From the NCBI GenBank assembly GCA_965222225.1, contig CBDCTK010000002.1:4608001-4672000 (forward strand): a DNA stretch of 64,000 nucleotides. The letters are read 5' to 3'. The translations under genes were made by a program, and so were the position numbers. This document shows positions 11,722 to 42,120 of the stretch, piece after piece. The notes beneath the pieces are model-generated. The model was given only the letters and a program-made list of their open reading frames with translations, made no database searches and was not told the DNA's origin. The DNA comes from Candidatus Poribacteria bacterium. GTDB lineage: Bacteria > Poribacteria > WGA-4E > JAJDTR01. Position 1 is the stretch's first letter. Every line of letters begins with the position of its first letter.

Positions 11722-12016
11722 GACCAAGCGAATGAACAATGAGTGTAGGGTGGGCACCGCCCACCATTCCTTATTCTATTTAGGAGGGGAATCAAGCGAC
11801 TGGATAAGGAGCGAACAGCGACCGCGATAGAAATCCTATAGCAAATCCCGTGCGATAGAGATTCCACGCGCGAGAATTCCCATAGAAGATTCTCATAGAG
11901 CTCCCATACATACCGTGTAATCCGTTTAATCCGATCAAGCGACTGGATAGGGAGCGCGATAGAGAATCCCTCAAGCGAGTGAACAGCCAGCGCGATAGAG
12001 ATCCCACAGAGAATCC
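11722..12016 (+). repeat. Cluster of full and partial copies of the ~37-nt GATCAAG...GCGATAGAGATCCC element, mixed with a REP (GTAGGGTGGGCACCGCCCACC, 11745-11765)
   Basis: Units at 11722 (partial), 11791, 11933-11970, 11971-12005 plus several short TAGAG.TCCC stutters. Confidence 0.85.
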
Positions 12017-12258
12017 TGATTCAGACAAGCAGGTTCCTAGCAATTATCACGCTCGTTCAATTGTGGCACTTTTTTCAGTTTCGTTCTCCCTGTGCCAATC
12101 GGCAAATCTGATTTTACTTGTATCAATCTATAGTATTGTGATAACTTAATTCGGGAGGAAAATCGAACTTCGTTCAATTCTAAAGATGCTTGCAGGTCTT
12201 CGTTTGTGCAGCTTGGAACCCGCGATTCTAGGGACGCGAAAAGAACGAAATCAAGTTT

Positions 12259-12699
12259 ATGAAAGTCAAAATCAAGCGAGTAGATAAAGACCTCCCGTTG
12301 CCCAGATATGAAACTCCAGGGTCGGTGGGGTTTGATTTCCTTTGCCGCGAATCCGTGGCAATCAAGCCGCACAGTTTAGGACTCATCCCAGCCAACGTCA
12401 TCGTCGAAACGCCGCCGCGATATATGTTGATGGTCACGCTTCGCAGCAGCACGCCAAGGAAACGGGGTTTGCTGATTCCGCACGGGGTCGGAGTCATCGA
12501 TCAGGACTACTGCGGCGAGGGCGACGAGATAAGAATTCAGGTCTACAATTTTAGCTCCAATCCAGTGACGGTAGAACGAGGGGATAGGATTGCCCAGGGC
12601 GTTTTCGTCAGGGTGGATACGGCGCAGTGGTCGGAGGTCAATCGAATCGAGTCGGAGACACGCGGCGGATTTGGGAGTACCGATACCGTAGGGAATTGA
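12259..12699 (+). CDS. dut: dUTP diphosphatase
   Basis: Motifs GSVGFD, RSS, GVIDQDYCG, GDRIAQG, RGGFGST. Confidence 0.96.
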   Translation: MKVKIKRVDKDLPLPRYETPGSVGFDFLCRESVAIKPHSLGLIPANVIVETPPRYMLMVTLRSSTPRKRGLLIPHGVGVIDQDYCGEGDEIRIQVYNFSSNPVTVERGDRIAQGVFVRVDTAQWSEVNRIESETRGGFGSTDTVGN

Positions 12700-12701
12700 A
12701 G

Positions 12702-13523
12702 ATGGAACAGTATTTGGACGCGCTTAGACAGGTTGTAGAGACCGGGGTTGATCGGAGCGGCCGCAACGGCGATACCCGCGCCGTATTCGGGATGCAGATG
12801 CGTTTCGACATGTCCGACGGCTTTCCCGCCGTTACAACGAAGCAGCTTGCGTTTAACACCGGTGTGAAAGCCGAACTCTTGGGCTTTCTGAGAGGCTACT
12901 CGGATGTCAAGGACTTTCAGAAGCTGGGATGTAATGTCTGGAATCAGAACGCTGAAGCCGATTATTGGAAATCGCGTGCGCGCTTTGAGGGCGACTTGGG
13001 GCGAATTTACGGCGTACAATGGCGCTCATGGAAAACCGTAGACGGACGGACACTGGATCAGCTTGCCGAGGTGATTGATCAGATCAGGAACGATCCGTCC
13101 AGCCGCCGCCATGTGGTGACAGCCTGGAATCCCGGCGAGCTCGGCCAAATGGCGCTCGCCCCATGCCATGCGTTCTTCCAGTTTTTCGTAGCCGATGGCA
13201 AACTTTCGCTTCACATGTACGAACGGAGTTGCGACATGTTCTTGGGTGTCCCGTTTAATATCGCATCGTATGCCCTGCTCCTGCACATGGTGGCGCAGGT
13301 GACGGAACTAATGCCCGCTGAGTTCATTCACTCCCTGGGAGACGCCCATATCTACCATGAACACTTTGAGCATGTGGAAATACAGTTGGAAAGAGAACCT
13401 CTGCGGCTGCCGGAACTTTATCTAAACCCCAAGATAAAATCGATTGATGATTTCAAGATGCAGGACATCAAATTGCAAGATTACAAACACCACGACGCAA
13501 TCAAAGCGCCTATGGCAGTATGA
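12702..13523 (+). CDS. thyA: Thymidylate synthase
   Basis: MEQYLD start, LGRIYGVQWR, MALAPCH, RSCDMFLGVPFNIASY, C-terminal APMAV. Confidence 0.97.
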   Translation: MEQYLDALRQVVETGVDRSGRNGDTRAVFGMQMRFDMSDGFPAVTTKQLAFNTGVKAELLGFLRGYSDVKDFQKLGCNVWNQNAEADYWKSRARFEGDLGRIYGVQWRSWKTVDGRTLDQLAEVIDQIRNDPSSRRHVVTAWNPGELGQMALAPCHAFFQFFVADGKLSLHMYERSCDMFLGVPFNIASYALLLHMVAQVTELMPAEFIHSLGDAHIYHEHFEHVEIQLEREPLRLPELYLNPKIKSIDDFKMQDIKLQDYKHHDAIKAPMAV

Positions 13524-14023
13524 GAGATGCTTCAATGATTATATCGCTGATTGCGGCAATGGATCGGAATCGACTCATCGGACAGGCGAATCGTCTCCCT
13601 TGGCGTCTCCCCGCGGATATGAAGCATTTCAGAAAATTGACGCTGGGCAAACCGGTGGTGATGGGACGGCGAACCTTTGAATCCATTGGCAAACCGTTGC
13701 CCAAACGTACCAACATCATCTTAACTCGCGACCCGCATTTCCGTGCAGGCGGGTGCATTGTAACGCACGGTGTTGATGAAGCACTGAGGAAAGCGAATGA
13801 CTCCGAAGAGGTGATGATAATCGGCGGTTATTCGGTGTACAAGCAGTTCCTGGATTGCGCAGGACGTTTCTACCTGACGCAAATCCACGAATGCTTTGAG
13901 GGGGATGTCTATTTCCCGGAGTTTGAGTTGAGCGATTGGTGTGAGGTCAAACGTATCAGGTGCGAACCGGACAAAGATAATCCGCATTCGTACGACTTTG
14001 TTGTCCTTCGTAGAAACTCTTGA
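13520..14023 (+). CDS. folA: Dihydrofolate reductase
   Basis: LIAAMDRNRLIG, LPW.LP.D, MGRRTFESIGKPLP.R, IIGG; follows thyA. Confidence 0.97.
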   Translation: MRDASMIISLIAAMDRNRLIGQANRLPWRLPADMKHFRKLTLGKPVVMGRRTFESIGKPLPKRTNIILTRDPHFRAGGCIVTHGVDEALRKANDSEEVMIIGGYSVYKQFLDCAGRFYLTQIHECFEGDVYFPEFELSDWCEVKRIRCEPDKDNPHSYDFVVLRRNS

Positions 14024-14169
14024 ATGTGTTCGTCAATCGATTTTGTAATCTTGCGCCATCTCGGCAATGATATTCATCTGTCACGCCTCCTGATTACCGC
14101 TGAGCAAAACTGTTTTCCAACAGGTATGCCTGCCACGGATAGACTAACCATCATGCGGAGCGGCCGAAC

Positions 14170-40764: not shown

Positions 40765-40841
40765 ATTAGTGTGGTTGCAAAATGGATTTTCTCCCATGTC
40801 GCGACAACTTGGGATACCGAAATTTCGTCAAAGGAAAAATA

Positions 40842-41777
40842 ATGGAACATTTAACTATTCCGGGAGTAGTGAAAGCAATTTCGCGGATTGTGCTCGGGAC
40901 TTTGGTGTTTTCTCCGCACAGAGAGATGACCGGCGAAGAGCTATTGGATGATTTCTTCGCGGCAGGCGGGAATGCGATAGATACAGCTCATGCCTATGGC
41001 GGTGGAGACAGTGAACGGGTAATCGGCGCGTGGATAAAGGCACGCGACAACCGGGCGGAAGTGTTTTTGATCGACAAAGGCGCCCACCCCACGCCTAAAG
41101 TGCCGCGTCCGAGACTCAATCCTCAGGAGATTAAGTGCGATCTAGACGAGAGCCTCGACCGGTTACAGACGGATTATATCGATCTATATCTACTTCATCG
41201 CGACGATTCTCAGATTCCGGTAGCCACGATTATTGATTATCTAAATCAGGAGATTGAATCGGGAAGAATTCTTGCTTTTGGAGCATCCAACTGGACACAT
41301 CTACGTATTCAAGAGGCAAATGAGTATGCCGCCCAAAACGGGTTGATTGGTTTTGCGGTCAGCAGCTCAAACTTGAGTCTTGCCGTTTCGATGGAGGCGA
41401 TGTGGCCAGGTGTCCTCTCTGCCTCCGAAGAAGCCCAGCGTTGGCATCGGGAGAGTCAATTCCCTTTGATGTCTTGGTCGTCTCAAGCGAGAGGGTTCTT
41501 CAGCGGGCAATTTACTCGTGAAAACCGGAGTGAAAAAAATATGGTGCGAGTGTACTATAACCGTGACAATTTTGAAAGGCTCAAACGCGGGCAGGAATTG
41601 GGCAGCAGGAAAGGGTTTACCGCCATCCAAATTGCGCTGGCTTATGTTATTCATCAGCCGTATCCAACGTTTCCGATTGTTGGGCCATGCACGCTTGATG
41701 AATTAGACTCATCCCTTGAGGCGCTCAAAATTGAACTGTCTAACGATGAGATTCGATGGCTCAACCTTCAAGACTGA
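40842..41777 (+). CDS. Aldo/keto reductase
   Basis: GGNAIDTAHAYG, SLDRLQTDYIDLYLLHRD, FGASNW, WSSQARG. Confidence 0.93.
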   Translation: MEHLTIPGVVKAISRIVLGTLVFSPHREMTGEELLDDFFAAGGNAIDTAHAYGGGDSERVIGAWIKARDNRAEVFLIDKGAHPTPKVPRPRLNPQEIKCDLDESLDRLQTDYIDLYLLHRDDSQIPVATIIDYLNQEIESGRILAFGASNWTHLRIQEANEYAAQNGLIGFAVSSSNLSLAVSMEAMWPGVLSASEEAQRWHRESQFPLMSWSSQARGFFSGQFTRENRSEKNMVRVYYNRDNFERLKRGQELGSRKGFTAIQIALAYVIHQPYPTFPIVGPCTLDELDSSLEALKIELSNDEIRWLNLQD

Positions 41778-41968
41778 AGTACTATAGGGCATGCGTTGAC
41801 TTTAGTGCGCAATTATATATAGCTTCGTCTGTTTTCGGTGTCATGTTCACAGGTTTCGACATGTCAATCTTCGAGATTTGTCGCTGGTAGTTGTTTGAAT
41901 GCTACATTGGCCTTATTGCTTTTTCACCTGACAAGCTGGAAACACTCCGCATCGCAGAGGAGAAGAAA

Positions 41969-41992
41969 TCGCGACCGGGAGATCGCTCCTAC
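41969..41992 (-). repeat. Single REP of the GTAGGAGCGATCTCC family
   Basis: TCGCGACCGGGAGATCGCTCCTAC, reverse-complement relative of the 29738 arm. Confidence 0.75.
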
Positions 41993-42048
41993 AGGGACCT
42001 ACACCTGCGAAGAGAAGATGGGGAATCTGCGATCTGATGATTGAAGAT

Positions 42049-42120
42049 AGATCTCTATCGCGCTCCCTATTCAGTCGCTTGAAGGGATCTCTATCGAACT
42101 CGCTATCCGCACCCTTGATC
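42049..42120 (-). repeat. Head-to-tail dimer of the ~37-nt element, minus strand
   Basis: Reverse complement reads GATCAAGGGTGCGGATAGCGAGTTCGATAGAGATCCC-TTCAAGCGACTGAATAGGGAGCGCGATAGAGATCT. Confidence 0.88.

Follow-up and report, generated by a model that had tools for sequence, protein, structure and literature searches.

How very short bacterial repeats spread, repetitive extragenic palindromic sequences (REPs) and small dispersed repeats (SDRs) among them, is largely unsolved. The SDRs of heterocystous cyanobacteria that Elhai et al. reportedly described in 2008 are said to be very small and are held to be mobile. In the passages of the literature cited here, TnpA(REP) acts on the single-stranded REP, not on the inverted REP (iREP), and requires a bulge in the stem (PMC8266576). 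Insertion sequences (IS) of the IS200/IS605 type are described in such passages as lacking inverted ends and target duplications and as inserting 3' of a short sequence, in a biology that is strand specific, single stranded, and coupled to replication (PMC6006769; PMC8266576). SDR5 is stated to insert at one exact point of GCGATCGC, between its bases 3 and 4, i.e., after GCG (PMC4390886), and the SDRs of cyanobacteria are given elsewhere as "some 20 bp" (PMC2884548). Here, we analyze a 35-nucleotide (nt) unit that recurs between positions 11722 and 42120 of a 64,000-nt stretch of Candidatus Poribacteria DNA, the whole of which we call the window (assembly GCA_965222225.1, contig CBDCTK010000002.1, positions 4,608,001 to 4,672,000). 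The original prediction, made from these letters, had seen in the unit the product of a copying enzyme. We consider it likely that the unit is a mobile hairpin element that inserts into its own copies, and on balance we favor the fuller proposal that it is a very small, nonautonomous, REP/SDR-like element that moves as a single-stranded hairpin with the help of a presumed enzyme.

Structure, covariation, and distribution of the unit

The window belongs to a genome of 5.70 Mb in two contigs (G000; main contig C2, 5.6 Mb) with 50% G+C. The degenerate pattern of the original prediction matched the window five times with at most three mismatches, against 0.00 expected from 100 shuffles. An nhmmer profile, built from 110 strict genome copies of the unit, reported units or pieces at 11725-12005, 24804-24835, 27213-27249, 27341-27388, 29666-29702, 35138-35169, and 42050-42120 (minus strand). 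These include every site listed originally save 29870-29922, a degenerate remnant discernible by eye. Two further observations were confirmed: full copies in the window all differ from one another, and all window copies lie between open reading frames (ORFs) of at least 100 aa. Metagenome evidence came from assembled contigs of four runs (DNA runs X3, X4, and X9; RNA library X15), which are short and break or join chimerically at repeats (e.g., joints 24835->27225 and 29701->24803). Contigs of the three DNA runs, from three studies, cross the units at 27213-27260, and because independent runs and studies span this site, these units are not an assembly artifact. RNA-library contigs span two units in all, one of them covering 28997-29767 with the unit at 29666-29702; such cover is no proof that units are transcribed.

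Alignment of the copies revealed fixed blocks and four variable dinucleotides that are reverse complements of one another. The skeleton reads ATCAA-N1N2-GA-N3N4-GRAYA-N4'N3'-GA-N2'N1'-GCGATAGAGATCC, that is, an ATCAA head, an imperfect hairpin of 17 nt (2 bp, tandem G.A, 2 bp, and a GRAYA loop), and the tail GCGATAGAGATCC, 35 nt in total. Among 850 skeleton matches, the outer dinucleotides are fully paired in 773 and the inner ones in 793, with no fewer than 10 kinds of pair at either position; both intervening GA dinucleotides are retained in 757, and the loop is GAATA, GGATA, GAACA, GATTA, or GGACA in 750. Loops of the GRAYA kind and tandem G.A are common motifs in structured RNA.

To measure covariation, we took 148 distinct units, some from the window and others from loci in several genomes, with head and tail as the sole selection criteria. 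Pair cells were paired in 90.4% of cases, compared with 60.9 ± 1.4% after shuffling (0 of 500 shuffles reached the observed value), and 204 cells were altered on both sides, compared with 38 in shuffled data. Sliding the partner positions lowered the paired cells to 24-58%, and RNAalifold recovers the same four pairs. The original prediction had called the unit not palindromic, which overlooks this imperfect hairpin with four covarying Watson-Crick pairs. It had also noted that variation falls at recurring positions; such positions are present, but since they are compensatory pairs, the variation is not copying error.

In 796 gapless units, G.T combinations (345) lie far above A.C (35), and we conclude that the pairing constraint acts on one strand, which is folded or read as a hairpin. 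The complementary strand folds worse than the hairpin strand. The 796 units fall into 416 distinct 30-mers and 179 stem combinations, with partial linkage between outer and inner stems (0.49 bit versus 0.08 shuffled). A compensatory difference is also seen between orthologues: a unit beside a conserved REP has C..G in G000 and A..T in relatives G005 and G002.

Scanning this and related genomes with a profile had been proposed with the original prediction. The scan bore out a family of high copy number: 1015 hits in G000 at E<=0.01 (604 at 1e-5), 835 of them outside crude ORFs and most of the others in short, probably spurious ORFs (median, 113 aa). The tail core 12-mer CGATAGAGATCC occurs 264 times in G000 against ~0.7 expected. 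A loose regular expression for the tail was discarded (4345 matches in the genome versus 3290 in the reversed genome). Unit density is similar across divergent, tandem, and convergent spacers. Some units lie within long frames of 531-2419 aa that stay open (C2 2921272-2921308, 2965617-2965651, 3738217-3738253, 3117016-3117046, and 3909964-3909993), and such units might have inserted in frame, or the ORFs might be fusions across spacers.

A strict 30-nt pattern of the unit was then searched in 176 Poribacteria genomes, in all of which the reversed pattern, used as a control, gave 0 matches. The strict pattern is abundant in 10 of 10 genomes of the window's genus (329-859 matches each) and occurs in 4 of 4 genomes of a second genus, from another family (114-137 each); within the phylum, the unit is abundant in those two genera only. 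Six other genomes have 1-14 strict matches, which in those examined lie on small contigs. Low counts (G066, 14-19 matches; G146, 4; G010, 2-3) probably reflect binning carry-over, not transfer, because the matches sit on few small contigs at the density of genus g1. Relatives of the window's genome are, among the matches listed, all Candidatus Poribacteria metagenome-assembled genomes. The window array 11780-12020 had no blastn match in plasmid or phage collections, and the 30-nt pattern had none in viral contigs. Over the whole window, Rfam at gathering scores returned a tRNA at 1540-1613 as its sole hit and no unit match, and Rfam at E<=1 on 11600-12100 returned nothing. A literature search on Poribacteria repeats, in the main texts of a limited library, found no paper on such a unit.

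Insertion sites, nesting, and orientation

The ends of the unit are well defined. In 473 isolated copies, conservation rises abruptly at the head and fades ~37 nt later; the consensus places ATCAA 5' of the hairpin and GCGATAG 3' of it, and a weakly conserved GTAGG farther upstream stems from neighboring REPs. Of 947 units, 878 have a G as the base just before the insert, in contexts as varied as TGCG, GGGG, GAGG, and TGTG, so that insertion occurs immediately 3' of a G, often at TGCG^C or GGGG^C. As originally stated, terminal inverted repeats, unique spacers, and target duplications were not seen at the copies and junctions examined.

The cleanest junction readings came from a GTAG-headed REP, numbering well over 100 copies, which offers two TGCG^CAC sites. 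The second of these, GCACTGCG^CACCAGCC, was scored in 95 copies: 56 are empty, and 7 carry inserts of exactly 35 nt (ATCAA ... GATCC) with an intact flank and with different stems. Of the remainder, 3 lack one flank base, 12 lack 5-6 (several of these are parsing effects, with C-to-T at the first flank base), 16 were classed as "other," and in 1 the flank was not found. The first site, in 198 copies, is empty in 65, filled with an intact flank in 8, and filled minus two flank bases in 15; 2 copies lack 3-5 bases, the flank was not found in 31, and 77 were "other." The 15 inserts at sites that lack two flank bases are probably one lineage, because 14 of their 15 heads start ATCAAAGG. At hairpins of the form GCCCCAG.GGGG^C, ~80 sites are filled and 71 intact.

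A miniature transposable element with inverted repeats (MITE) of ~50 copies (example, G000:C2 ~2138400-2138700) has 16-nt terminal inverted repeats, TAAGAGCCTGTTTGAA / TTCAAACAGGCTCTTA, and an interior composed of a GTAG REP and two GCCCCAG.GGGGC hairpins. What mainly sets its copies apart is unit load: the shared hot spots hold between 0 and 4 units per copy.

Filled and empty sites were also compared between genomes. One hairpin that neighbors an IS200-like Y1 gene holds a unit in G000, G001, and G005 but none in G002. When 254 foreign units were tested with 150-nt flanks, 2 matched empty sites and 1 a filled site in G000; a flank was unmatched in G000 for 103, and flanks were repeated and set aside for 134 and not colinear for 14. 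Aligning filled with empty sites had been suggested with the original prediction; relaxed uniqueness adds filled/empty pairs in repeat contexts. In a DDE transposase gene, ~24 near-identical G000 copies are all empty, while two copies in another genome carry different units at the same position. This DDE IS (DDE_5 / DDE_Tnp_1) lies at L148:1744-2763 (minus strand) and its ~24 G000 copies, and at L078 and L046 in the other genome. Between two species of the genus, the flanks that were compared share 96-100% identity, which suggests, from sequence, recent activity or transfer of this IS.

Direct neighbors show no single period. Spacing had been called nearly fixed in the original prediction, yet genome-wide the head-to-head distances of direct neighbors spread from 23 to 94 nt (modes, 69, 41, 23, 62, and 36). 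Neighbors within 400 nt are direct in 281 cases and inverted in 78. Pieces truncated at the 3' side end at model position 18 (49 cases) or 21-24 (217), and pieces truncated at the 5' side begin at positions 15-17 (42), 21-23 (48), or 25 (30); these points bracket the two internal G^C steps of the unit. In 93 cases, a new head succeeds an outer unit that breaks off after position 24. The inner unit is clean in 81 of these, and in 58 of the 81 it is followed by the outer remainder, a CGATAG-like tail. Cuts after the loop number 24, with a second tail in 12; the dinucleotide of this second tail pairs with the outer head in 9 of 12 (shuffled, 3.7 ± 1.4; maximum, 9 in 1000 shuffles). What had been read as stutter, namely, aborted 5' starts and recopied 3' ends, thus breaks at the unit's own G^C sites and largely represents halves of an outer unit split by a nested inner unit.

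Adjacent direct units are also no more alike than random ones. Among 137 pairs, stems are identical in 3 (2.9 ± 1.7 expected), and the mean Hamming distance is 6.09, compared with 6.17 ± 0.18 for random genome-wide pairs. This argues against reiterative copying of one template and indicates that arrays grow mainly via independent insertions into or beside resident units. Local tandem duplication as a source of whole-unit arrays was ruled out on the same 137 pairs. Local slippage does occur for tails, as in the perfect tandem of 3 x 17 nt at 27382-27433.

Orientation was examined with units masked and GC skew taken in 50-kb windows. The hairpin strand lies on the negative-skew strand for 694 of 1012 units (chi-square, 137) and for 435 of 635 clusters (chi-square, 84), statistics that, given the lack of independence among units, overstate the case. 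Plus-strand units make up an equal share beside plus- and minus-strand genes within either skew class (35-36% and 72-76%). REPs of the GTAGGGTG type have the same skew bias (240/322), and unit and REP are co-oriented: 227 units have GTAGG immediately 5' on their own strand, compared with 10 that have CCTAC. Orientation that tracks skew irrespective of genes, together with the skew bias shared with REPs, points to a DNA-level, replication-linked process common to units and bona fide REPs.

Candidate enzymes and competing explanations

In the mechanism that we propose, the unit would travel in single-stranded form at replication forks, where a nuclease/ligase that reads structure would cut and join it in trans. 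The most likely enzyme would be one of the many Y1 HUH proteins of these genomes, either a REP-associated tyrosine transposase (RAYT) or an IS200-like protein, and it would recognize the irregularities of the hairpin together with its flanks, as Escherichia coli TnpA(REP) needs the REP bulge. The unit is found mostly in the stems of other palindromic repeats and also at the two G^C positions inside existing units, and such insertion builds up co-oriented, nested arrays in which heads, complete units, and tails occur. Mobilization by a Y1 HUH enzyme is the most tentative part of this proposal, possible but well short of probable.

G000 has at least seven Y1 HUH loci. They include an IS200-like Y1 gene (NF033573, 65.8 bits), a RAYT gene with one in-frame TAG (NF047646, 133.6 bits; L007:1372-1914, plus strand, = C2 ~3088808-3089350), and several more distant Y1 genes. 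The RAYT gene is flanked by GTAGGAGCGATC-type REPs and has intact relatives in the second genus (L126 and L128). Y1_Tnp genes occur in all 14 unit-rich genomes, and G010, with its 2-3 units, has none. The loci L005-L009 and L124-L139 hold an unusually rich set of Y1 HUH (RAYT-like) genes with their own palindromic repeat families, and at least six different GTAG-headed or other REP types are found across the window's genus and the second genus. G000 has a single RVT_1 hit, a 670-aa AbiA-type defense reverse transcriptase (RT; PADLOC, 254.8 bits) at L123:514-2526 (minus strand; C2 ~4499560-4501572), adjoining a fragment of a type I restriction enzyme, and the one-contig, unit-rich genome G012 gave no RVT_1 hit. 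An HUH gene, one of the associations that the original prediction had suggested, is still the best candidate, but no single gene is tied to the repeat.

Several observations weigh against the proposed mechanism. Single units have a minimum free energy of -0.2 to -2.2 kcal/mol as DNA (z >= 0) and of -2.6 to -6.5 kcal/mol as RNA, where an extra ATC/GAT helix appears (z, -0.6 to +0.7). Because they fold so weakly under nearest-neighbor rules, the structure, if formed, probably requires a partner. At the right junction, 1-3 nt are often missing or the sequence is altered, unlike the seamless joints of IS200/IS605; only 3 of the 254 foreign units could be placed uniquely in G000; and no excision product or circle was seen in run data that consist of contigs broken at repeats. 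Y1 genes also occur in genera that lack units, the IS200-like type of L005 being found in unit-free genera g6 (7/7) and g3 (5/10), and the phyletic profiles of L005-type and L009-type proteins do not match the distribution of the repeat. No Y1 type common to all four g4 genomes was found. Flanks were inspected at the seven G000 loci (L005-L009 and sites at 1.546 and 3.836 Mb) and at L112-L114, L117, L122, L130, L131, and L135-L139 in relatives; none of these Y1 genes is bounded specifically by units, each having its own palindrome or none, and units nearby are occasional lodgers.

The strand bias is also open to other readings. It could be inherited passively from the host REPs. Taking positive skew as a mark of the leading strand would place the folded strand on the leading-strand template, whereas IS608 follows the opposite rule. 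Along C2, GC skew changes sign many times, with a cumulative maximum at 0.83 Mb, a minimum at 2.54 Mb, and further reversals, a pattern that suggests rearrangements or assembly joins at repeats and further burdens the orientation argument.

We next consider the alternatives. That the unit represents an independent class of "nano-transposon," recognized by a hairpin code and moved by a non-RAYT enzyme or by a replication-fork process, is in our judgment doubtful. The agent would be a new HUH-type or nicking enzyme confined to the two genera or, alternatively, target-primed copying from the 3'-OH of the G; the code would consist of the fixed G.A mismatches, the loop, and the flanks, leaving the stems free. 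Retargeting of the same G^C sites would replace resident units and so would explain the different yet paired stems at paralogous and orthologous sites. If true, such an element would be the smallest structured mobile DNA defined to the base so far.

Template switching without a dedicated enzyme we regard as improbable. A nascent strand ending in G would stall at a palindrome, copy a unit via 1-3 nt of microhomology, and return. This predicts templated insertions of 35 nt, sharp at the left joint and ragged at the right one, and the left joint is indeed precise and the right one often 1-3 nt short; the targets are hairpin-forming repeats, orientation is linked to GC skew and not to genes, and any unit could serve as donor, consistent with unrelated neighbors. 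Microhomology should, however, vary the length of the copied segment, whereas the seven independent inserts at one site are all exactly 35 nt. Conservation that starts and stops sharply at the unit ends in the 473 isolated copies speaks against it as well, and fixed unpaired bases, kept across two families, imply a specific recognition partner.

It is less probable still that the unit serves as a functional RNA or as a motif bound by protein, perhaps a transcript stabilizer or the target of an RNA-binding protein, whose hairpin is under selection and whose multiplication is incidental. Strong covariation and strand-specific wobble pairs would fit such a motif, as would the GRAYA loop and the tandem G.A, RNA parameters recover the helix together with the additional ATC/GAT helix, and RNA-library contigs span two units, but this last observation, as stated above, proves no transcription. 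Fold energies are no better than those of shuffled sequences, Rfam is silent on the unit both over the window at gathering scores and at E<=1 on 11600-12100, orientation is independent of flanking genes, and density is alike in the three kinds of spacers. Units moreover interrupt transposase genes and other repeats.

The original prediction, in which an RT or primase-polymerase would put repeated, error-laden copies of one short template into nicks, is very improbable: partial heads and extra tails exist, the perfect 3 x 17-nt tail tandem shows local slippage, and a precise left with a ragged right joint would suit target-primed synthesis, but variation is compensatory, neighbors differ as much as random pairs, broken units behave as nested halves, there are 179 stem combinations in 796 units and no master copy, the sole RVT_1 of G000 is the AbiA-type gene in its restriction context with none in G012, and no Rfam family contains the unit.

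Window copies and relation to described systems

The copies in the window, on the plus strand unless noted, illustrate this range of forms. The first is a degenerate 5' part of a unit, head and hairpin without tail, at 11722-11744 (nhmmer 11725-11745, model 4-24, E 0.71). It abuts a GTAG-headed REP palindrome at 11745-11765, a host repeat and not a unit, which is conserved at the orthologous position in two other species. A composite follows at 11790-11837: the complete hairpin of one unit continues without a break as the loop, 3' arm, and tail of another, so that the pair is nested or fused, and it is recognized by two overlapping nhmmer hits (11791-11813, model 2-24; 11806-11837, model 6-37). 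Next comes a run of orphan tails at 11838-11910, made of ATAG..ATCC-like 11-16-mers (Tandem Repeats Finder [TRF] period 12 at 11827-11848; nhmmer 11850-11862, model 22-34). Two full units with different stems, the second with a damaged head, stand head to tail at 11933-12005 (nhmmer; TRF period 36, 2.0 copies, 83% matches).

A single unit at 24804-24839 (nhmmer 24804-24835, E 1.2e-5) directly follows a GCTCCAGAGG-type hairpin repeat, adjoining its 3' arm. A GCTCCAGAGGAGC ... ATGTCAATAGA hairpin repeat occupies 24740-24803 and is far more abundant in the metagenomes than the 35-nt unit; in all four runs the summed contig depth of its bin is 2,300-5,000, versus ~40 in neighboring bins. Farther on, 27190-27260 combines a 5' unit part (27190-27212), a full unit (27213-27249), and an additional 11-nt tail (27250-27260) and is spanned by DNA and RNA-library contigs (nhmmer; TRF period 11 at 27239-27260). 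At 27341-27433, an outer head half (27341-27358) is followed by an inner full unit (27359-27398) and by the tail tandem at 27382-27433 (TRF, 17 nt x 3.1, 100% matches; nhmmer hits of the site, model 1-18 and 1-30).

The full unit at 29666-29702 (nhmmer E 6.8e-8) is succeeded by orphan tails to 29730. A GTAGGAGCGATC-type REP with an inverted partner, again not a unit, lies at 29738-29791; the same REP family flanks the RAYT gene of L007. Degenerate remains at 29870-29923, a forward 3' part and a reverse head with no overall strand, were identified by eye, and nhmmer reported nothing there at E<=10. A 12-nt head fragment precedes a unit with mutated head and tail at 35121-35169 (nhmmer 35138-35169, E 9e-4), and two units stand head to tail on the minus strand at 42050-42120 (nhmmer; TRF period 36, 1.9 copies). 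Two other tandem repeats lie within coding frames of the window: a 132-nt repeat (2.0 copies, 84% matches) at 17337-17606, inside a 1439-aa ORF at 14880-19199, and 63-72-nt repeats at 26366-26668, inside overlapping ORFs at 26099-26747.

For the question of how REPs and SDRs spread, this family is an unusually clean handle, offering a base-exact 35-nt unit, a known insertion point, and a hairpin code that can be read from ~180 natural compensatory stem variants. Self-nesting records the order of insertion events, and restriction to two genera of uncultured sponge symbionts narrows the search for the enzyme. Units also make up much intergenic DNA, break assemblies, interrupt transposase genes, and may sit in frame in long ORFs.

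The view that the repeat does not fit classical REPs, MITEs, IS, or CRISPR is supported by its membership features and by its precise insertion without target duplication. It is nonetheless REP-like in being a palindrome-bearing 35-nt unit, within the 20-50 nt of REP palindromes, of high copy number (1015 hits) and mostly extragenic position (835 outside crude ORFs), in clustering with other repeats, and in sharing orientation with the genome's GTAG REPs and their skew bias. An imperfect hairpin with conserved irregularities, read on one strand, and the absence of target duplication recall what the passages cited say of the REP/RAYT system (PMC8266576; PMC3733652). The unit departs from REPs in that its hairpin lacks a conserved, unpaired GTAG or CGTC tetranucleotide at the 5' foot, in having stems of 2+2 bp, in nesting within itself, and in that no RAYT gene among the inspected loci is flanked specifically by units, hence no REPtron. 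REPINs (hairpin-forming doublets of REPs) and bacterial interspersed mosaic elements (BIMEs) differ in their inverted doublets and alternation, whereas unit neighbors are mostly direct, as counted above, and variably spaced.

With SDRs, the unit shares very small size and presumed mobility, and many units follow TGCG, much as SDR5 is stated to insert after GCG (PMC4390886). It comes from another phylum, has another sequence, and measures 35 nt against the "some 20 bp" of SDRs, a comparison made through citing passages (PMC2884548). Like IS200/IS605 elements, it lacks terminal inverted repeats and target-site duplications, but those elements are hundreds of bases long with two distinct subterminal hairpins, whereas the unit has a single hairpin. 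Its target is little more than a G (often TGCG) and not a specific tetra- or pentanucleotide, its right joint is often ragged, and its polarity relative to GC skew appears reversed, with the origin not located and the skew flipping many times.

Insertion into the stems and loops of palindromic repeats, in modular arrays of variable composition, is reminiscent of IS1397-type elements, BIMEs, and BOX. REP-targeting insertion sequences of the IS1397 type encode their own transposase and make duplications, and BOX is a mosaic repeat of modules; BOX and BIME modules are not known to nest into their own copies. MITEs have the terminal inverted repeats and target-site duplications that the unit lacks, and a true MITE with 16-nt terminal inverted repeats is instead a host to units. 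In contrast to CRISPR arrays, units abut or nest, have differing stems, and enclose no spacers, and in contrast to retroelement products, they have neither a codistributed RT nor a master template. The closest working counterparts are the REPs processed by TnpA(REP) and the very small mobile repeats of cyanobacteria.

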